Virus record (IMG/VR): IMGVR_UViG_3300011977_000007
Span: 46,264 to 110,263 of that record
DNA from: a virus
Taxonomy: Duplodnaviria; Caudoviricetes
Length of the DNA stretch: 64,000 bases
Strand: one strand, 5' to 3'
The translations under genes and the position numbers were made by a program. Within the stretch, counting starts at the first letter, position 1. Each line of letters begins with the position of its first letter. Below, in pieces: positions 14,630 through 52,359 of this stretch. Below the pieces are notes generated by a model, which saw nothing but the letters and a program-made list of their open reading frames with translations, did no database searches and was not told the origin of the DNA.

Positions 14630-17600
14630 ATGGGAATTAATGCTCCAAAGCACGTAATACGAAAGCCTAAGCACATTACAAATCCGAAAGACATAGAATA
14701 TATATTGTCCTTAACAGAGGATGAGGCTGCAGCTAAAAATACGATAATGGATTTATTTGCCGATTTTGGAGACGGCCCAAGATTTAATACTTATGATATT
14801 ATAGAAATTCCTAAGGGATCTTATGGTAAAACTAAGAAGAATAAAAATCAATTTACAACTACAGTTGGATTATATGTATTTAATAAAGGCTGCATAGAAG
14901 ATATGTCTGATGTACTGGGATATATTAATGAGCCTATTACTGCTGATAAGTATGATGAAATAAATGAATTAGTATCATATGCTAAATTGGAAGATAAGAT
15001 CACTGTACAGCAGTTGAAAGATTTTATAATACAATCTCAGATTTATATGTCTTGTACTTCAGCATTATCACCATCTCATACAATGGTTCTTCTTTTAATC
15101 TCAGATAAAATTGAGGCTAGAAAGAAACAATTATTAAAAGATAAGTATGGCGAGGCTATAAAGAAGAAAGATATTAAAGCAATGGATGCTCTTGATAAAG
15201 AACTTCTTGATTATGCAAAGGAATTATTAAAAGATGATCCATCTGTTGATATGTTTAATTCTGGTGCTCGTTCATCATGGGGTAAAATTACTCAGCATAT
15301 ATAGTAATATGTGTGTTTCAATGGGGTTAATTGCAGGTAATACCTAAAGGCCTTACGCCAAAACGGAATTTGAAAAAATAAACGGTATGGTACGAAAGTA
15401 GAAAAAACGTAAGGATGCAATAAGCTGAAATAAAATTCTATTATAAATTATAATAGATGCTAAGTTGTAATAACAAGGGTTGTTCATGCAGCGAAATACC
15501 TAAGTCTATATAGATATGGTAAACGTTCAACGACTAGCCGATGACGTCGGCGGCTTTGCCTTAATGTAAAACCACAAGTTAATGGTGGAAGAAAAATCCC
15601 AGCCCTATAAATATAGGGATGACAAATAGTCTCTGCTACTACTTAATCGTAGTGACAACTTGAAATAATATAAGTTGTGTATATAGAGTTGCGTCTATAT
15701 ATAAAGATATAAAAATTATATAATATAAAAATTAAATATAGGTAGATAATTACAATTCTCAAAACACTTCATTAAATCTGTAATGAAAGGTGGTGAGGAT
15801 CGTGAGTAAAATAAATAACAATAAGCAATATTATAAAGGTCATAAATATAAAATATACCCAACTGAGGAACAAAAACAAAAGTTGGATAAATTTATAAAT
15901 CTTTATAGGTACGTTTATAATTGGGCTCTTGCTAAAGAACAAGAGATATATGAATCTTATAAAAATGGTGAAAGTGAAAAATCATTTTATACTTTCTTTG
16001 ATTTGTCAAAAATATTTGTACAATATAGAAATTCGCCTGAAAATAAATGGTTATTAGAATTACCCAACGGTACTGCATGTAATGCGATAAATGAATTGGT
16101 TACTGCATATACAAGGTTTTTTAATAATATTAGTGGGTATCCTAAATTTAAATCTAAGAAAAATTCTAAAAAATCATTTACAACTAGAAATGATAGATTT
16201 TATATAGATAAAAATACTGTAAAAATAGAAGGATTAGATCTAAATGATAGAATTCAATTAGGGTTTGATTCTGAATATAATAAAGATTCTGTTCATCATA
16301 ATACAGTTATATCTAAGGATACTATAGGTGATTATTATGTGTCATTTTGTACTATTGAAGAAAAAATAGAAATTGATAATTCTGATGGTGGGGTAATAGG
16401 TATTGATTTGGGAGTTAGAAATACATTAACAACATCTGTACCTATTGAAGGTGAATATTTTCATCATCAACCATTTAATAAGATTAGTAAATTAAAACGT
16501 AATATATCTAAATTACAAGTTAAAGTATCTCACGATCAATTACGTAGACTTAATGAAGCAAAACGTACGAAAACCAAGTACGAAGACATACCTAAAAGTA
16601 AACGAGAAATTAAGAGAGAAAAAATAATAAATAAGAAATACATTAAGATTCATAATATTAAAAATACATATTATGATACTATTATTAAACGTATTATGGA
16701 TACTAAGCCTAAGGCTGTTGTAATGGAAACTTTTGAATATAATAAAATCATACATTCACAAAAATATATGACTAAATATATGGTTGATACTTCATTTTAT
16801 GATATTACTCAAAAAACAAAGTATCAATGTAATAAAAGAAATATTCCATTTATTCAGGCACCAGTGCAATATGCATCATCCCAAATATGTAGTAATTGTG
16901 GAAATAGGATTAAAATAGGTAATAAAAAGATTTATAGATGCCCTATATGTGGTAATACGTTAGATAGAGATCTTAATGCTGCTTATAATCTCGAAGATTT
17001 TTATTATGACTATACTGGTACTAATAGATTAGTTGCTGTAAGTATAGCGTAATTCGTTTACACATTATTTAGGTTAAATAATGAATTTTAATGTACCGAG
17101 TTTTACTGTTCTCGGGATGTTAAGATCATTGAGAATTGTAAGTATATATCATTTATAAGCCCAACCAGCTTAACGTGTGGTATTCACACGGTTGATATAT
17201 GAATTATGATTTGTTGATATGATAAGTAAATCATAATTATATATTTACCTTTATAGGTTTACATATTATATGATTTTAAATACAGTAACAATTTTAAAAA
17301 CATGTATGTTTCTCGTGGTACTGTTAAATTGACCGATGGATCATTTGATATGGTTACTTCATCATATATATCTGGCCTATCAAAAGAAGATCTTGTTAAA
17401 GCAAATGATGCTGCTGTTGGTGGTCCTTATAGCCGTGCTGTAAAAACTAAAGAGGGTGGATATAATGAAAAGAAAATTCTCTATGGATTACAGCATGTAA
17501 AAGTATTACCTAAAGGATCTGATTGTGGAACTAATAGAACTATAGATGTGACTCTTACTAAAAAGAATATTAAGAATTGGATGTATAGTTTTGTTAAACA

Positions 17601-18264
17601 AGGATCTAATTTAATAGAAATTACATCTGATACTAAAGATAAATTTATTGGAAAAACTGTTAAAATGAGATATTTCTCATTATGTGAATCTAAAAATGGA
17701 ATATGCGAAAAATGTGCCGGAACCTTATTTAATCGTTTGGGAATTTCCAATGTAGGATTAGCAAGTGATATATTTGGTTCTAGACTAAAGAATACTTCGA
17801 TAAACTCTTGTCGCTTCATACTGGTAACAGTGTGTAGAAAATATCTTCTAATTGCTGGAACATGCTAAAGCTCTAATGCCTTAATGGAGAAGAAATTCAG
17901 AAATAAGTTTAGAGATGACTCATGGTGAAATAAAAGCTTATATATCTAATATATAGGTCCTAAAAGTTATTAAAAATGTATAATCAGCAGCGAAGCCTAA
18001 TAATAATTATTAGGAACGTTCAACGACTATCCCGTTTGGTGGTGAAATTCCACAATAGGAGTACGGCCTATATGGTGGGTGAGAATCCCTTAAATGGAAA
18101 TGGAGATATGTCCTCGTATACCTATACGGGGATAGTGATATAGTCTATTATCTAGAGAAATACTAGGTCTATACTAGCGTAAAACGTTAGCTGAGAGGAA
18201 GAGTTTCCATGTGGCTCAAATTAAATTTTCAGATATGGATATAGAAGATGCATTTAATTTATAA
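14630..18264 (+). CDS. phage RNA polymerase beta-prime C-terminal subunit (probably virion RNAP); spliced join(14630..15282,17286..17801,18198..18264), 411 aa
   Basis: Spliced product reads SGARSSWGNNFKNMYVSRG (region F), SRAVKT.EGGY (bridge helix), DCGT, C..C zinc site and NVG...NTSMKSFH (trigger loop); exon sum 1236 nt is a multiple of 3. Confidence 0.85.
15763..15774 (+). promoter_or_regulatory. putative late promoter for intron-encoded tnpB
   Basis: AACA CTTCAT TA, about 28 nt upstream of the tnpB start. Confidence 0.55.
15802..17052 (+). CDS. tnpB: TnpB RNA-guided endonuclease (IS200/IS605/IS607 ORF B)
   Basis: N-terminal KIYPTEEQ...RYVYNWAL; RuvC-I GIDLG, RuvC-II VMET, zinc finger SSQICSNCG...CPICG, RuvC-III DRDLNAA; RBS before GTG 15802 (ORF track starts at 15790). 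Confidence 0.92.
   Translation: MSKINNNKQYYKGHKYKIYPTEEQKQKLDKFINLYRYVYNWALAKEQEIYESYKNGESEKSFYTFFDLSKIFVQYRNSPENKWLLELPNGTACNAINELVTAYTRFFNNISGYPKFKSKKNSKKSFTTRNDRFYIDKNTVKIEGLDLNDRIQLGFDSEYNKDSVHHNTVISKDTIGDYYVSFCTIEEKIEIDNSDGGVIGIDLGVRNTLTTSVPIEGEYFHHQPFNKISKLKRNISKLQVKVSHDQLRRLNEAKRTKTKYEDIPKSKREIKREKIINKKYIKIHNIKNTYYDTIIKRIMDTKPKAVVMETFEYNKIIHSQKYMTKYMVDTSFYDITQKTKYQCNKRNIPFIQAPVQYASSQICSNCGNRIKIGNKKIYRCPICGNTLDRDLNAAYNLEDFYYDYTGTNRLVAVSIA
17053..17285 (+). ncRNA. putative omegaRNA scaffold / intron 3' domain
   Basis: About 230 nt structured non-coding stretch between the tnpB stop and the 3' splice site (hairpins CGTGTG/CACACG and AATTATGATTT/AAATCATAATT); expected position of a TnpB omegaRNA. 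Confidence 0.55.
17802..18197 (+). ncRNA. group I intron (ORF-less) in the trigger-loop Met codon
   Basis: P1 CGAU/GUCG with U.G at the 5' splice site; AATTGCTGG, AATCAGCAG, TTCAACGACTA, GATATAGTC; terminal G; splicing gives AT|G AAG AGT TTC CAT. Confidence 0.88.
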
Positions 18265-18845: not shown

Positions 18846-21800
18846 ATGTATGTAATTAAACGTAATGGAAAGCAAGCAGTTTTTGATAAAACAAAAATTG
18901 TAGTGGCAGTCTCAAAAGCCAATAAAGAAGTATTAGAAAATAAATTATCTGATGATCAGATTAATAATATTGCAGATACTATAGAATCAAGAGCAAAACA
19001 ATTTTCTAGAGCCTTAAATATAGAAGAAATTCAAGACATGGTAGAAAATCTAATCATGTATTATAATAAGTATGAGGTTGCCAAAGCATACGTATTATAT
19101 AGATATAAGCAGAAAGAAAATAGAGATAATGGCAATTTATTTAATAAAGTAAATGCAATTGTAAATAATGAGGATGAGGAAACTAAACAGGAAAACTCAA
19201 ATAAAGATTCGGATATTATATCTGTGCAAAGAGATTATATTGCCGGTGAAGTATCAAAGGCAATGGTTAGACAAGAGAAATATCCTAAATACATTATGGA
19301 TGCTCATGATGCTGGATTAATTCATGTTCATGATTGTGATTATAAAATTTGTAAAGAAACTAATTGCTGCTTGGATAATGTTGATGATATGCTTCAAAAT
19401 AGTACGGTTATTAGTAAAACAAAAATTGATACTCCACATACATTCCCTACAGCGTGCAATATTGCAACCCAAGCAATGGCACAAGTTGCATCTTCGCAAT
19501 ATGGCGGCCAATCTGTATCTCTTTACCATTTAGTAAAATTTGTTGAGGTTAGTCGTCGTGCTATTATTAAAGCTGTTGAAGAAGATCATGTACCAGATGA
19601 GTATAAACAAGAAGCTATAAATAGAAGACTAAGAAAAGAAATTAGTAGTGGCATACAGACTATTCAATATCAGATTATTACGCTTGCAACTACTAATGGT
19701 CAAGCTCCATTTGTTACTTTATTTATGTATCTTAATGAAGCAGAAACAGAGCAAGAAAAAGAAGACCTTGCAATGGTAATTGAAGAGGTATTAAAGCAAA
19801 GAATCAAGGGTGTTAAGAATAAAAAAGGCGTTTGGGTAACTCCTGCTTTTCCTAAACTTATATATGTATTAGAGGATGATAATATAACAAAAGATTCTAA
19901 ATATTTTTATCTTACAGAATTAGCAGCAAAATGTACTGCAAAGAGAATGGTTCCAGATTATATTTCTGAGAAGAAATTAATAGAATTAAAGTATCCTACA
20001 GAAAAACTCTTACATATTAAGGATCGTAGAGATCAGTGGGGTGATGAGCGTATTTGGGGGAGAAACGTATTTAAAAATGTCACTGATGAGGAATGCAATA
20101 AGCTTCAAAATATAGTTGATAATAGATTTAATAAGGAATATATTATTCCGGATGAAACTAAAGCTATTATCAAGAAATATGGATTAAAAATGGCTGATAT
20201 TGTGCCTAAAGCATACCCATGCATAAACAAAACCTGTGCCTAATATTAGTGATAATATTAGCAAACCTGTCTAAAAGGAGAAAGTCTTAATATACTGACC
20301 TGATATTAAGATAACTTACCTTACTAAATTTATATACCTATATTATTAGCGCATATATGAAATAATGAAAGGATAAATAATATGTGGGCTGATCTTATAG
20401 GATAAGAAAATATATAGATATATAATAAAAGTCTAACGACTATCGAAAACGCTGGTATTCGAGAAATACGATATCGGGAAGTGAGTAGAGTAGAGCCATA
20501 TATTATGATAGAACCATTTATATGGTAGGGTGATGGGTAGAGTAAACCCCTTTAAATCGAAAAGATAGGATGTCTTATTTTGGTAAAAGAAATAAGCATG
20601 TGATATAGTCTAGTTCAGCGATATAATACTCATTTAACGTTCTATGTTTAAGTATTATAGCGGCTGGGGGTGTAGGTCCTTCTTAACTCCTGATTACATC
20701 CATTATAAAACTTATGGAAGGTTTAATCAGTCAGTATGTACTATTAATTTAGTTGATGTAGCATTATCATCACAAAAAAATATTGATGAATTTTGGAAGA
20801 TATTTGATGAACGATTAGATTTATGCTATGAAGCATTAATGATTGATCATAATTATCTTATGAAAACACCATCTGATATAGCGCCAATGCAATGGCAAGA
20901 TGGAAATTTAGCTAGATTGGAAAAGGGGGAAACTATTGATAAATTATTAGTAAATAATTACAGTACAATTTCCTTAGGATATGCTGGATTATCTGAATGT
21001 GTTAGATATATGACAGGTAAATCCCATACAAATTCAGAAGCTAAGCCATTTGCATTATCCATAATGAGGCATTTAAATGATAAATGCGATGAATGGAGGG
21101 AAAAAACAAATGTATCATTTAGTCTTTATGGTACGCCTATAGAATCGACAACATATACATTTGCTAAAAATCTTCAAAAGAGATTTGGTATCATTAAAGA
21201 TATAACTGATCGTAATTATATTACTAATAGCTATCATATTCCTGTATTTGAAAAGATTGATGCTTTCAGTAAATTAAAATTTGAATCTGAGTTTCAGGAA
21301 TTATCTCCAGGTGGTTAAATGAACTTTTACATAGCCTTAAATAGCCACCTTGAAATTATGTGAACGCTTGATATGCGGTGTAAATAGTTTTATATTATTT
21401 GCTAACGGGGGACACTTAAGTGGAAATCCCGTGCCAAGCCTATAATATTTTATTATAGGAAGGTGTACAGACTAATTTACCCTGGATTTGATCACCAGTG
21501 GGAAGTGCATAGGGTGAGAAGCAGAGGTTACCTGCTACGCTAAGATATAGTCGGAAGGAGATAAAATTATGTATAAATGTGATATTTGTGGAAGAGAGCT
21601 AAAAAAGAAAAATATGCTACATGGATATAATTTATGCAGTAAACATATGCATCAATTATTAAATCATGGAAAATTTTTAGATAACAATCCAAGAACACAA
21701 AATGACTTAAATGGATATAAAATTATTGGTAAAATTGTAATTTTTGATTTATATGATGGAATATTATCAAATAAAATTAGTGAGTTTATTATTGATTTTG

Positions 21801-45824: not shown

Positions 45825-46364
45825 TTAAAACTCCACTCCCTGATTATGTTTATTAACAACTCTTGCTACTTCTACCTTAGTTCTATCATTTTTTACATTC
45901 TGATAATCGCATAAATTATCAAATATACGATCAAAATGATTATTGATGGCATTATTAATTTCGTTCTGCATACTGGAGACGCATGCAGATAAGTACATTG
46001 CAAAATCTGTATCCATATTAGCAGTATCTTTATTAAAATCACCGGTGTCATACAAGGCAAGCGCTGCTGGATCATGATCTCCGTATGTTACCTGAGATTT
46101 GTCTACAGGTTCTGATGGTTCTGTGCAATCATCGCAATATGCAACTTCTAAGTTTGCAATATCTTCATCAGAAGCAGCAATTGAAAAATGTCCATCACCA
46201 ACTGTATAAACAGGTGTATCTGGATCTAATGTACTGAAAAAGTGAGCGAGATTACCAGCTTTCATTTCTACATTACCCATTGTATCCTCACAATGATTTC
46301 CGCATTTGCACATATGTTCTACCTCCTTAGCTGTTTGTAAATCTTTCTGTTTTTTGTTTCTCAT
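45825..46364 (-). CDS. hypothetical protein
   Basis: GGAGG RBS; early promoter at 46420-46437. Confidence 0.55.
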   Translation of the reverse strand: MRNKKQKDLQTAKEVEHMCKCGNHCEDTMGNVEMKAGNLAHFFSTLDPDTPVYTVGDGHFSIAASDEDIANLEVAYCDDCTEPSEPVDKSQVTYGDHDPAALALYDTGDFNKDTANMDTDFAMYLSACVSSMQNEINNAINNHFDRIFDNLCDYQNVKNDRTKVEVARVVNKHNQGVEF

Positions 46365-46731: not shown

Positions 46732-46783
46732 TTTTATCCCTCCATCAAAAAATAAAGAGGGAGCTATAAACTCCCTCAATATT

Positions 46784-49700
46784 TTATCTCATTGCTTGTA
46801 ATCTTTTAATTTTAGCAATTTCATCTTCTGTATATTCACATAATGATTTCATAGAATTAGCATTAATAATTGTATCTCTAGAATGCATCATATCCATATT
46901 ACAACGTCCATCATTTTTTGAAATAAACATTTGTCTTGGAGATATGATATTCTCTGCTGCTTCTATAAATGCTCTTGAATATAACAGAAGGATATTTAAT
47001 GTGTCCAGTATCTTCACACTAGTCGTTAATTAGTGCAGTTCTCTTACGAACTTCTATGGTTTTTCTCCATATGTTGAGACTATATCATCATCTCTATGAG
47101 ATGCTTCTCCACTTCGATTTAAAGGGTTCTCACCTACCTACTTAGGCCCTACTCCTGTTGACGAATTTCACGTCCCTTCCGGGGATAGTCGTTGAACTAT
47201 ATTAAAAATATAGCTGCTGATTATACATTGTTAATACTACTTAGCACTCTATACAGTATAGAGTTTTTTCTCAGCTTATAGCATCTTAGAACTTGTTTCT
47301 GTCTTTCGACTCCTAATTATAGGCATCTAAGCTTTAGCATTTCCCAGCAATTCAAAGAAGATACTTAATATATTACTATATTAAGCGGCAATACATAATT
47401 TACCATCGACCGTAAAACGTAAGCTAAGAGCATACGTTTTAAATAGACTATATCTTCATCCATTATATGGATGCTTTGCTTTTTGATTTAAATGGCCTTA
47501 TTGCTGCTTTGCCATACCTATATAATGGGCTCTACTCTAATAACTTGATAGTCGTTGAACTTTCTATAATAATAACTATTATAGTTTAGCTGCTGATTGT
47601 ACATTATTAATGAACTTTAGCATTTACATAATTCGACACAGCATTACATAAACTTTTTCTCAGCATAGTTCATCTTTAGAATTTTTTCTATCTTTCGATA
47701 ACATTCACGCTTATTATTACTAATTACGTTGTAGTTTCTAAAGCATTAATACCTCCCAGCAATTTACAAAGATTTAACCTATATATTACTATATAAGTGA
47801 CCCCGATGATTTGTTGAGTCTGCAGCAAGTAATTTTAATATTAACAGTGAAATACTCATGGTGTAATCCATATTAATTCCTACAACACGACAAAATAATA
47901 TTCCTCCGTAGCTAATTGTAGGGTTTCTGTTACAATATCTTCACACTAGTCGTTAATTAGCGCAGTTCTCTTATGAACTTCCTAGGTATTTCTCCTAGAG
48001 TTGAGACTATATCATTACCCATATATATATATGGGTATGCTTCCACTTCGATTTAAGAGATTCTCACTCACCTACTTAGGTCCTACTCCAATTGACGATT
48101 TTCACGTCCCGTATAGGGGATAGTCGTTGAACGTTCCTAATAAAATATATTAGGCTTCGCTGCTGATTATACATTGCATAATACCTTAGGACGTATCTAT
48201 TTTATAAATACGCTTTTATTTCACCATAGTACATCTCTTCTACTTGTTTCTATCTTTCGATACCTTATATATTATATAGGCTAGAGAGCTTTAGCATTTC
48301 CCAGCAATTCAAAAGCATTCGTACACCATATTACTATGATATACGGACTAACGTTAATCAGTACAGGTAATCCGCCATCTGAATCTTTAATTAAACCATC
48401 TATAATATCATAGACAATCTGATCAAATCCAATCTGTGCTTTATACCATTTCTTATATGCATCTGCATATGAAAAATTATAAGTCCTTACAAGTATATTA
48501 ATTATTACCTGTTGTAATAATTCACATAAGCCATGATATGGTAATTTTACCTGATCTGGCATTAAATGTACATCTTGTCTAATAACCGAACGGCTACTAA
48601 ACGAGTCGGCGGGTTCACATAGGTCGTTAATCTATGCAGTTTTCTTATGAACTTCTCTAGGTGTTACCTAGAAGCCCAGACTATATCACATACCTTATCT
48701 TATAAGGCATCTTTCTTTTTCGATTTAAGGGGTTCTCACCCACCACTTGGCCCTACTCCTGTTGGCATTTTATTAAGGGCTGCCCAATGGGATAGTCGTT
48801 GAACGTTCCTAATAAAATATATTAGGCTTCGCTGCTGATTATACATTGCATAATACCTTAGGACGTATATCAATATATACGCTTTTATTTCACCATAGTA
48901 CATCTCACTAATTATTTCTATCTTTCGATGCCCTATATAGAAGAGGGATAGTGAGCTTTAGCATTTCCCAGCAATTTAAAAAGATTCACGCACTATATTG
49001 CTATAATACGTGGGCTGATGATAGTTAACCTACCCATTTTGTTCACATAGGTCGTTAATCTATGCAGTTCTCTTATGAACTTCTCTAGTTTTTCTCTAGA
49101 TGATCAGATTATATCATTATACTTTATTCAAGTATTCTTCCACTTTGATTTAAGGGATTCTCACCCACCACTTGGCCCTACTCCTATTGCTGAATTTCAC
49201 AGCCCTTCCGGGGATAGTCGTTGAACGTTCCTAATAAGATATTAGGCTTCGCTGCTGATTATACATTATACGTTATTTAGGACGTATATAATATATACGC
49301 TTTTATTTCACCATGTAACATCTCTCTACTTGTTTCTGAATTTCTTCACCTTATTATAGGCTAGAGAGCTTTAGCATTTCCCAGCAATTCAAAAGATTAT
49401 TCGACACTGTGTTACCACAATGAAGCGGCTTAGATACAAACCGATCGAAGATCTTAAATCTCCTTTTTTACCTTCAAGAATTTCTTTAAGCTCAGTATAT
49501 AAAGCATTAAATTCAACCTGAATATCGTATAATACTTCATATTTATTTTTCTTTTGTCTATCTGGTACTAATTTATCATTATTAGCCTGATATACTAAAT
49601 GAGCTAAAAGATTATAATTCTCATTAGTTTTTTCATATTTAAGACTACCAGCATTATCCAATTTGGTAGGTCTTAATAATGTAGTAAATACAGGAATGGA

Positions 49701-50357
49701 TTGAGTAAATACAATATCTTTATGACGCATTATATCATCATAATAATTTTTCTTTTGAGGATATATAGATAAATAAAAATCCATAATTTCATCAAAATGC
49801 TCTTTAAAATATGGTATTCCTTTTCCCCTAAATGGTTCATCTTTCTTTTTAGGGTCAGGTCCAATTTCAATCTCAATTCCATCCGAATTCACCTGAATAT
49901 CTGGTTCAATTATTCTATTCATACGTTGAGTTCCAATGAAAGCCTCAAGAGAACGATATAAATTAGGATGGATAATATAGAACTTCTTTAATACAATCCA
50001 TCCAAAGATAGACATATCGTCATCTTTATATTTAACCATAGTTCCGCACGATGGGCAAATTTCACCATGGTTAATAGACCCTCTTGTTAAGCCGCAATCA
50101 CAACGATAACGATCAGCAAACGAATCATCATCTTGTAATGTAGAACCATATCTATTAGAGAAAATACCTCCCTGAAGCTTAATATCCTTCTTAATAGATT
50201 TAGGTTGATCGATGATAAATCCTTTACCATTGTGAATATCATTTTCTCTCTCTTTATCTAAGTTTAACCTTACTAACTCCGTAGTATAATCAAACTTATC
50301 ATTGTGGGGATATTGTAATGATATCCGTACATTTGTTTCTCTTTGTTTCTTTACCAA
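46784..50357 (-). CDS. phage RNA polymerase beta-prime N-terminal (catalytic) subunit, probably non-virion RNAP; exons 50357-49440, 49034-49028, 48606-48357, 47932-47817, 47409-47402, 47005-46784; 506 aa
   Basis: Zinc finger C.CG...CPSC; spliced GKKGDLRSSIGGRYSFSSRSVI, LINRNPTI and catalytic AADFDGDTLN; exon sum 1521 nt; early promoter at 50466-50483. Confidence 0.9.
47006..47401 (-). ncRNA. group I intron E (ORF-less), between G and D of DFDGD
   Basis: P1 UGGU/GCCG; core motifs; terminal G followed by GAC ACA TTA. Confidence 0.87.
47410..47816 (-). ncRNA. group I intron D (ORF-less), in the DFDGD Phe codon
   Basis: P1 GACU/GGUC; AATTGCTGGG, AATCAGCAG, TTCAACGACTA, AAGATATAGTC; terminal G. 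Confidence 0.87.
47933..48356 (-). ncRNA. group I intron C (ORF-less)
   Basis: P1 CUGAU/GUUAG; core motifs; splicing restores AT|T AAC AGA (INR). Confidence 0.87.
48607..49027 (-). ncRNA. group I intron B (ORF-less)
   Basis: Same core motifs, GATATAGTC; terminal G; follows the 7-nt micro-exon. Confidence 0.87.
49035..49439 (-). ncRNA. group I intron A (ORF-less)
   Basis: P1 CGGU/GCCG; GAATTGCTGGGAA, AATCAGCAG, TTCAACGACTA; terminal G. Confidence 0.87.
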
Positions 50358-50537
50358 TTTAATTCCTCCTTATATACTCTTTTAGTGTAGCGCTCCTTTC
50401 GTCGTTACTATATTATAATGTAAACGAGCCTATAAAAACTTACCTCAGCTCTCATTATACGTATATATAATATATAATTAAATAAAATTTTATAAAAAAA
50501 ATAAAAAGGGAGTAATTAGACTACTCCCTTTCTGTAG

Positions 50538-51063: not shown

Positions 51064-51477
51064 TTATTTTAATTTAGTATAATCTGGTATTGGTAAATCT
51101 TCAGGAATATCCTTCCAACTTAAACCTTCTGGCGGAAAATCATCTTCATGGTGCCCAAAATTCATCATACATATTGCTGCATGGAATACATCTAATGATT
51201 TATCATATTCATATGGTTTTCTTAATACATTAATAAGCATATTTATTTCCGAATCTGATAATTTATAATTTCCATTTTCAGCATAAATGTAATATGGTCC
51301 AAAGAATGATATCCTAGCCATATTATTTCCAAAATATACTTTCATGTATCCTTGTGGGTAATCTTTAGGCTTAATATAATTATATGGTACATCTATTATA
51401 ATATTATCATCATAATAAATATTATCATAATTTATTGGGTATTCTCCTAAAGATTTAGACATTAAATCATTTTTCAT
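51064..51477 (-). CDS. PDYTKL-family protein B, copy 2
   Basis: Highly similar to 51946..52359. Confidence 0.7.
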   Translation of the reverse strand: MKNDLMSKSLGEYPINYDNIYYDDNIIIDVPYNYIKPKDYPQGYMKVYFGNNMARISFFGPYYIYAENGNYKLSDSEINMLINVLRKPYEYDKSLDVFHAAICMMNFGHHEDDFPPEGLSWKDIPEDLPIPDYTKLK

Positions 51478-51487
51478 TATATACTCC

Positions 51488-51889
51488 TTATATAATTATT
51501 TTAGTGTAATCTGGAATTGGTAATTCCAATGGTAATTTATCTTGTGGTTTTACTACACGATTAAATACAGTTATTAATGCTTCCCAAGTAGTATTATACA
51601 TGCTATACTCAGCACTTGTTGGGTGGGAAATTAGTAACCTCATTAATTCTTCTTTATCTTTTTTCTTCATTTTAAATAATGGTTTACCTTTATGAGCTTC
51701 ATATCCAGCATCATAGAAATGTAATCTTATAACTTCTGTTGCTGCTTTTGGGCTTGAATTATTATAGACTTTAAAATATGCAATTTTGCCATAATTCTCA
51801 TTAGGGCTTGGATCTATAGAGACACACATGTTGCTCTTACGTATTAAGCTAACTTCGTTTATAGATTCAATATCTTTTAAAAATATCAT
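51488..51889 (-). CDS. PDYTKL-family protein A, copy 2
   Basis: Similar to 52375..52797. Confidence 0.7.
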   Translation of the reverse strand: MIFLKDIESINEVSLIRKSNMCVSIDPSPNENYGKIAYFKVYNNSSPKAATEVIRLHFYDAGYEAHKGKPLFKMKKKDKEELMRLLISHPTSAEYSMYNTTWEALITVFNRVVKPQDKLPLELPIPDYTKIII

Positions 51890-51945
51890 ATATTTTATTT
51901 CTCCTTTTCTTTAGTTTTGTTTTTTATTTAAAATAAATCCTCCTA

Positions 51946-52359
51946 TTATTTTAATTTAGTGTAATCTGGAATTGGTAAATCTTCAGGAATATCTTTCCAG
52001 CTTAAACCTTCTGGTGGAAAATCATTATCATCATGACAAAAATTTGTCTCACGTATTGCAGCATGAAATATATCTAATGATTTATTATACTCATACGGTT
52101 TTCTTAATGTATCCATTAATATAGCTATTTCTGAATCCGATAATTTATAATTACCATTTTCAGCATAAATATAATATGGCCCAAAGAATGATATTCTCGC
52201 CATATTATTATTAATATACACTTTCATGTATCCTTGTGGATGATCTTTAGGCTTAATATAATTATATGAAGCATCAATTGTAATATTACTATCACAATAA
52301 ATATTATCGCAATTTGGAACTAATTCACCTAAAGATTTAGAAATAACATATTTATTCAT
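51946..52359 (-). CDS. PDYTKL-family protein B, copy 1
   Basis: Paralog of 51064..51477. Confidence 0.7.
   Translation of the reverse strand: MNKYVISKSLGELVPNCDNIYCDSNITIDASYNYIKPKDHPQGYMKVYINNNMARISFFGPYYIYAENGNYKLSDSEIAILMDTLRKPYEYNKSLDIFHAAIRETNFCHDDNDFPPEGLSWKDIPEDLPIPDYTKLK

Follow-up and report, generated by a model that had tools for sequence, protein, structure and literature searches.

Five group I introns and two micro-exons of 7 and 8 nt in a predicted non-virion RNA polymerase beta'-N gene of an AR9-like gut phage

How is a protein read from a phage gene whose coding sequence lies in six pieces, two of them only 7 and 8 nucleotides (nt) long, and are such micro-exons a device of the phage or a residue of intron invasion? 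The question is raised by an interrupted gene on the minus strand (50357-46784) of a 64,000-nt stretch of viral DNA, positions 46,264 to 110,263 of the IMG/VR record IMGVR_UViG_3300011977_000007; this whole stretch is called the window below. The host of the introns is an uncultured giant AR9-like phage of animal guts, known from a metagenomic viral contig, and the completeness of the source contig is estimated at 35%. Judged by its sequence, the gene is the N-terminal half of a beta'-like catalytic subunit of the phage non-virion multisubunit RNA polymerase (nvRNAP), orthologous to g270 of AR9 and g274 of phiR1-37. It is interrupted by five paralogous group I introns free of open reading frames (ORFs), and we consider, with a probability of about 0.85, that these are selfish elements acquired by homing and that the micro-exons are a by-product of superinvasion and not a conserved regulatory device.

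The six exons (918, 7, 250, 116, 8 and 222 nt; 1521 nt in sum) and the five introns are listed here in the order in which they are transcribed, the introns with their scores against the Rfam covariance model for group I introns, RF00028 (gathering score 50 bits), and with the internal guide sequence (IGS) that pairs with the exon.

49440-50357, minus strand: exon 1, 918 nt, 306 amino acids (aa); contains a Cys-rich CDCG...CPSCG segment and GKKGDLRSSIG and ends in TCG ATC GGT
49035-49439, minus strand: intron A, 405 nt; 44.2 bits, E 3.4e-9; IGS GCCG (49429-49426) pairs with exon CGGU
49028-49034, minus strand: micro-exon 1, GGTAGGT; codes for the GR of SSIG-GR-YSFSSR, and its last base opens the Tyr codon
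48607-49027, minus strand: intron B, 421 nt; 53.3 bits, with U.G placed by the model at the predicted splice site; IGS GCCCAC (49015-49010) pairs with GUAGGU
48357-48606, minus strand: exon 3, 250 nt; (Y)SFSSRSVIRQD...GGLPVLI, colinear with homologues
47933-48356, minus strand: intron C, 424 nt; 58.4 bits; IGS GUUAGU (48352-48347) pairs with exon ACUGAU
47817-47932, minus strand: exon 4, 116 nt; (I)NRNPTISYGG...LLAAD and the first base of Phe, colinear with uninterrupted homologues
47410-47816, minus strand: intron D, 407 nt, the most divergent copy; 35.6 bits, E 1.3e-6; P1 IGS GGUC (47802-47799) pairs with GACU
47402-47409, minus strand: micro-exon 2, TCGATGGT, 8 nt; two bases complete the Phe codon of DFDGD, and the rest codes for the Asp and Gly that follow
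47006-47401, minus strand: intron E, 396 nt; 51.4 bits, U.G falling on the predicted splice site; IGS GCCG (47389-47386) pairs with UGGU
46784-47005, minus strand: exon 6, 222 nt including the TAA stop codon; DTLNILLLYSRAF...LQAMR

Joining of the exons gave one open frame of 1521 nt for a beta'-N subunit of 506 aa, in which DFDGD is spread over three exons (GAC T in exon 4, TC GAT GGT in micro-exon 2 and GAC in exon 6). T is the last base of each 5' exon and G that of each of the five introns. The coordinates and lengths given for these exons in the initial annotation, which was made from the letters of the window, all checked out, and its five introns and 1521-nt coding sequence (CDS) were confirmed by the open frame, by intron-free alleles and by colinearity with homologues; its two micro-exons and the three-exon DFDGD were likewise recovered from the sequence, and its assignment of all five elements to group I, with a U.G pair in P1 and a terminal G, was borne out. 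Other registers were considered at two sites. At site A, divisions of 919+6 or 920+5 nt, giving GCR or GFR, also stay in frame and were rejected, as only U49440 forms U.G and the intron-free alleles read GGR; at site C a reading LINVNPT was ruled out, NRNPT being invariant. The paired introns do not form twintrons: 7 and 8 coding bases separate them, without which the frame and the residues GR(Y) and (F)DG would be lost.

The identity of the product was examined with the single exons and with the joined frame. A Pfam search of single exons returned no significant family, and the identity came from PHROGs, where phrog_2987, 'RNA polymerase beta subunit', matched exon 1 (E 2.5e-25, profile positions 41-288) and exon 3 (E 2.3e-12, profile positions 295-375). 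The tblastn matches of exon 1 included AR9 g270, annotated as the N-terminus of the non-virion RNA polymerase (RNAP) beta', and phiR1-37 g274. The alignment with AR9 g270 showed 32% identity over residues 119-439 (E 1e-42), and the joined protein is colinear with the uninterrupted phiR1-37 g274, gap-free at four junctions and with a single 1-aa indel near the first. At E<=1e-10, 356 homologues were found, the database proteins falling into length classes of ~320, ~405 and ~505 aa, and PF00623 is present in the uninterrupted ones. AADFDGD and NRNPT occur only in the joined frame, and both are invariant in a 14-sequence alignment (A3); the joined product thus has the catalytic (N)ADFDGD loop with its three aspartates together with the NRNPT motif, and it also contains GKKGDLRSSIGGRYSFSSRSVI, LINRNPTISYGG and LLAADFDGDTLNI.

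RF00028 matched all five introns over its full length (1-253). The U.G pair at the splice site was seen in the minimum free energy (MFE) P1 hairpins of introns A, C, D and E; the covariance-model alignments show it for B and E. A consensus fold of the five copies (RNAalifold) contained 89 pairs, of which 41 showed compensatory changes, and recovered P2-P9. The copies are paralogous, with A, B, C and E 67-78% identical to one another (76% for A and B) and D 57-60% identical to the rest. The RF00028 alignments placed an insert of ~70 nt, P7.1/P7.2-like, between the 5' strand of P7 and the 3' strand of P3, and on this ground the introns are probably of the IA type, common in phages. No ORF longer than 55 aa, and hence no encoded endonuclease, was found in any of the five. 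The same intron family was seen in jumbo phages of distant hosts, Vibrio phage vB_pir03 (L004 3160-3539) and Listeria phage LPJP1; where introns within the window segment 47980-49120 could be aligned with them, which covered 4-7% of the query, the identity was 78-88%. As a side observation, in introns B and C the P2 hairpin and the U-rich P3 strand that follows it score as intrinsic-terminator-like sites (49012-48987 and 48345-48320, minus strand).

Natural alleles that lack introns match each of the junctions exactly at the protein level. Seven uninterrupted metagenomic homologues (502-534 aa) are colinear with the joined protein and read through RSSIGGRYSFSSRSVI, INRNPTI and AADFDGD; uninterrupted homologues of 500-513 aa confirm the junctions. 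A 265-kb relative, L003, of ~90% DNA identity, has three introns only. It is without intron A, exon 1 continuing as ATC GGG GGG CGG T, and without intron E, TCGATGGT being contiguous with GAC ACC; introns B and D are kept at the same sites and are orthologous, and an A-like intron, C', lies 13 nt downstream of site C, after AAT CCT, so that C in the window and C' in L003 occupy different sites. Another allele, L088 (protein P0001, from a cluster of 127 sequences), shows 99% identity over exon 1 and lacks introns A and B, as does a pig-gut contig of run X3; both read IGGRYSFSSRSVIRQDVH, and at micro-exon 1 the intron-free alleles have the contiguous IGGRYSFSSRSVI. The introns therefore vary by presence and absence at fixed sites. 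Compared with L003, the joined CDS is of equal length (1521 nt), differs at 4 of 506 aa and gives a ratio of nonsynonymous to synonymous substitution rates (dN/dS) of 0.023, which indicates that the joined frame is under purifying selection and lends the predicted self-splicing indirect support. Because intron-free alleles reproduce the junctions and dN/dS is this low, the arrangement is not a product of chance. In L088 we also observed AAT ACT in front of a C'-type intron (1195-1215), against AAT CCT in L003; it gives NRN-T and not the invariant NRNP-T, weakens P1 of that intron, and could reflect an error, a shifted splice site or a defect of this allele.

Both micro-exons were also found in independent contigs from other gut or wastewater runs. 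Micro-exon 1 is bridged by a contig of run X4 (48902-49070) and micro-exon 2 by contigs of runs X3 (47327-47560) and X20 (47365-47514), each with intron sequence on both sides, and mis-assembly is thereby excluded. Exact-pattern scans of viral contigs for both micro-exon junctions gave no match, and six metagenome contigs that matched an 18-mer across micro-exon 1 were set aside as chance hits in unrelated DNA with no signal of the intron family.

We then compared the insertion sites in a survey of 81 related viral loci, seeded with intact NRNPTI or ADFDGD peptides. Interruptions were present in 27 of them, and all the breaks fell at ~301-310, 399-411 and 421-438 of the homologue P0026, three zones that coincide with the motifs holding the introns of the window: GGR/Y-FSSR, NRNPT and DFDGD. 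Within DFDGD at least three distinct insertion points are used across phages. The AR9 g270 intron, which carries the HNH gene g271, lies between DYDG and D, exactly at site E, in agreement with the initial annotation, which had noted group I introns in AR9-like RNAP genes; a break in L072 (between P0026 residues 437 and 438) has the site E position too. In vB_pir03 an intron of the family seen here, between NAD and FDGD, adjoining site D, splits the beta' gene, whose halves are annotated as separate genes. Locus L082 has four introns; two of them enclose a 25-nt exon, and the second interrupts the same codon position as intron B. L086 has a counterpart of intron A at an identical site, and this copy holds, in its P6 region, an ORF of 275 aa (L086 4288-5115) matching phrog_2081, 'HNH endonuclease' (E 8.7e-32); Pfam and PDB sequence searches with this ORF were empty, the HNH label coming from PHROGs only. 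A 40%-identical paralogue of it is encoded in the genome of our phage at contig position 8509-9321, outside the window, in an open frame of 345 aa. Another group I match lies near this paralogue, at contig position 6012-6367.

The sites A and B showed a further peculiarity. Between the window CDS and L088, 24 of the 56 differences lie within 60 nt around these two sites, and all are synonymous, including switches between the codon families of Ser and of Arg. Such a silent patch fits the trace expected from co-conversion or from escape from an endonuclease acting at the DNA level. In a comparable published case, 17 silent changes near the target in PhiKZ gp178 protect against the HNH endonuclease of the PhiPA3 intron (PMC11620839). 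By comparison with the L086 copy, the introns of the window look like ORF-less derivatives of endonuclease-bearing ones. It is plausible that the introns protect homing-endonuclease target sites; the HNH gene, the clustering at hot spots and the recoding in the intron-free allele would agree with this.

We propose, on this basis, that ORF-less introns colonised three highly conserved motifs (GGR/Y-FSSR, NRNPT and DFDGD). Since the insertion sites of the two pairs are spaced by 7 and 8 nt, their double occupancy would leave the micro-exons. Each intron would recognise its own 5' exon by a short P1 with a U.G wobble and splice independently of the others, and the 506-aa protein would require the self-splicing of all five in vivo. 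Homing was probably driven by HNH endonucleases, encoded in the intron as in L086 or supplied in trans, and the endonuclease genes would have been lost subsequently.

How two ribozymes could share so short an exon was examined from the predicted pairings. The loop UAUC (49436-49433) of P1 of intron A can pair with GGUA of micro-exon 1 as P10, and 6 of the 7 bases of the same micro-exon pair in P1 of intron B. In intron D the P10 segment CAUCGG (47808-47803) adjoins the P1 IGS GGUC on its 5' side and pairs with UCGAUG of micro-exon 2, so that the segment and the IGS together align GACU and UCGAUG. The overlap of the upstream P10 with the downstream P1, claimed in the initial annotation, was thus borne out, with GGUA against GUAGGU for A/B (3 nt) and UCGAUG against UGGU for D/E (2 nt), and a micro-exon cannot serve both ribozymes simultaneously because of it. 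The ordered splicing that had been read from this overlap does not follow: P1 of B and of E and P10 of A and of D are independent of the removal of the neighbour, and either order gives the same product. For a 1-nt exon of placozoans, both splicing intermediates have been observed (PMC5436844). Skipping of micro-exon 1 or 2, which the initial annotation expected to give a dead enzyme, would shift the frame to a stop at codon 321 or 431, respectively, and so truncate the protein; some product is likely to be lost in this way.

The initial annotation had also proposed that the five splicing events, with the nucleotides shared on the micro-exons, are a selected timer or a GTP/Mg sensor that gates the late RNA polymerase. 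The overlaps do bar joint docking of P10 and P1, and PMC10914365 states that group I splicing efficiency responds to conditions. The intron number, however, is five here and three in L003, whose joined protein is 4 of 506 residues off, there is none at the A/B sites of L088, many homologues are intron-free, and base pairing demands no order of removal. As the intron content varies between near-identical phages, the timer or sensor is left unsupported, and we regard it as very unlikely. A related proposal, that competition of P10 and P1 for 2-3 nt couples the paired ribozymes into sequential, mutually gated splicing, which would slow or proof-read the late RNAP and leave rivals no intact target, the crowding itself being selected, appears to us a long shot, if a slightly better one. 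Frequent skipping across A/B or D/E might instead yield N-terminal fragments with a role of their own. Skipping has been documented in Twort, where the exon concerned (23 nt) separates two similar IA2 introns of orf142, and in other phages (PMC10136302, PMC11878797), with a 34-nt exon of the Coxiella 23S rRNA as a further case (PMC10136302) and 47% skipped transcripts in phage SIOphi (PMC11878797), and introns A and B share 76% of their bases. The guides of A and B differ, however, and distinct guides favour exon inclusion in engineered tandem introns (PMC10136302); the skipped products are frameshifted and without the metal-binding aspartates, and a use of the fragments is hypothetical, which makes this reading highly improbable.

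The route by which the introns arrived, and their authenticity, bear more directly on the homing origin that we favour. A GCC(G)-guide intron could have moved at the RNA level, by reverse splicing, to the sites A, B and E, which all end in GGU; the micro-exons would then reflect a chance spacing of GGU. Introns A, B and E do follow TCGGT, TAGGT and ATGGT with the guides GCCG, GCCCAC and GCCG, are 67-76% identical to one another and carry no endonuclease gene; this common GGT and GCC guide counts against a homing origin and could point to reverse splicing instead. The mature CDS, however, has 21 GGT triplets, whereas the sites occupied in this phage and in the 27 relatives are confined to three conserved motifs; an HNH gene is present in the equivalent of intron A in L086, site E is common to the HNH-bearing AR9 intron, and the clustered synonymous recoding at A/B fits targeting at the DNA level or co-conversion, so that we judge reverse splicing unlikely. 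To an artefact, with mis-assembled intron repeats, or a decayed pseudogene, with introns that do not splice, we give next to no credence: the contig is metagenomic, with its low completeness estimate, and the introns are repetitive, but the two micro-exons are crossed by contigs of three further runs, identity among the introns is only 57-78%, and the exons are without stops or frameshifts at a dN/dS of 0.023. Further points have to be set against the homing of splicing-competent introns. Introns A and D score below the Rfam gathering score (C, B and E lie above it), the P1 helices are short, with 3-6 exon-side pairs, and that of intron B is weak (5 of 6 pairs), the unconstrained MFE fold favouring a shifted register. 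The runs X19 and X20, possibly of RNA, yielded unspliced or fragmentary contigs with no exon-exon joint. The seeding of the survey under-samples alleles broken at NRNPTI or ADFDGD, and with no endonuclease encoded in any of the five introns, any present mobility is putative. Taken with these points, selfish elements acquired by homing remain the reading that we prefer.

Comparison with known systems places the locus as follows. Bacillus phage AR9 has the orthologous gene with an intron at the site E position, between DxDG and D, but a single one with the HNH endonuclease g271, whereas the window has five ORF-less introns, with two pairs 7 and 8 nt apart. Staphylococcus phage Twort orf142 (Landthaler & Shub 1999, cited after PMC10136302 and PMC11878797) likewise has adjacent paralogous introns and a very short internal exon in a phage protein gene; its 23-nt exon leaves room for separate P10 and P1, whereas at 7 and 8 nt the helices share nucleotides, and it has three group I introns with skipping reported, against five in an RNA polymerase gene with splicing predicted from sequence. 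A micro-exon shorter than the P1 helix between two independent group I introns is also known in placozoan mitochondrial cox1 (1 nt, two group IB introns), for which the authors invoke a second intron inserted beside the first (PMC5436844); that case is organellar, IB, phylum-wide and confirmed by RNA-seq, whereas ours is in a phage, of IA type, variable among close relatives and known from DNA. PhiPA3 gp210 resembles the locus as a jumbo-phage multisubunit RNAP gene with a mobile intron beside conserved aspartate codons, and the silent target changes that block its enzyme have a natural likeness in the silent cluster at the insertion sites of L088 (PMC11620839). The PhiPA3 intron is single, in a virion RNAP (vRNAP) beta-like gene of a nucleus-forming phage, and has demonstrated endonuclease activity, whereas the window introns encode no endonuclease. 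For Bastillevirinae, PMC11878797 describes phage core genes that are interrupted two or three times by group I introns, with a small extra exon between two introns in phiNIT1 and exon skipping in SIOphi; the genes there are those for DNA polymerase, terminase and ribonucleotide reductase, with at most three introns per gene against five here, and the text searched mentions no exon <10 nt. According to PMC10914365, phiKZ has predicted introns whose splicing was not seen. Group I introns in AR9-type RNAP genes, multi-intron phage genes, short exons with skipping and mitochondrial micro-exons are therefore already published; new are the five introns in one 1.5-kb phage gene, the two exons that fall short of a P1 helix in length, of which one lies away from the DFDGD loop, and an AR9-like gut lineage with many intron-plus and intron-minus alleles.

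The surroundings of the gene contain the following signals.

50365-50370, minus strand: ribosome-binding site AGGAGG, read from the sequence, 7 nt before the TTG start codon (50357-50355)
46747-46777, minus strand: terminator-like hairpin and T run, directly after the stop codon
50533-50503, minus strand: second terminator-like hairpin, upstream of the gene

The TTG start is identical in the relative L003, and with terminator-like hairpins on both sides the gene looks like a separate transcription unit. Upstream of it lie three tandem paralogous ORFs (137, 133 and 137 aa; 51064-52359, minus strand), all with a C-terminal LPIPDYTK motif. Elsewhere in the window, on the plus strand (14630-18166), another RNA polymerase subunit gene, matching phrog_2962, is interrupted as well. 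Its exons, 14630-15304 (E 9.6e-19) and 17302-17790 (E 8.4e-32), are separated by ~2 kb holding a group I match at ~15433-15654 and a gene of 420 aa resembling TnpB/IS605 OrfB (15790-17052; PF07282 E 8.9e-18, PF12323 E 2.7e-14, phrog_506 E 2e-72), and a further group I match follows the second exon at ~17792-18166. An ORF of 465 aa (18846-20243, plus strand) resembles the anaerobic ribonucleotide reductase NrdD but matches only positions 4-380 of 718 in phrog_487 (E 1.9e-83), and this gene may be interrupted or split as well.

The locus is a real and very crowded instance of the known pile-up of selfish introns. Its interest lies in the packing density, five introns per 1.5 kb of coding sequence of an essential phage gene, with a metal-binding loop built from three exons. 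The exons of 7-8 nt lie almost entirely inside the P1 and P10 helices, which makes the locus a naturally occurring case in which to study the sharing of one substrate by two group I ribozymes and the frequency of skipping. Gene callers truncate the subunit at each intron, which produces the length classes of the database proteins, so that the polymerase genes of such phages are systematically mis-annotated. The set of alleles, with its subsets of introns, its HNH-bearing copy and its silently patched intron-free allele, pictures an ongoing conflict between endonucleases and their targets in gut jumbo phages.

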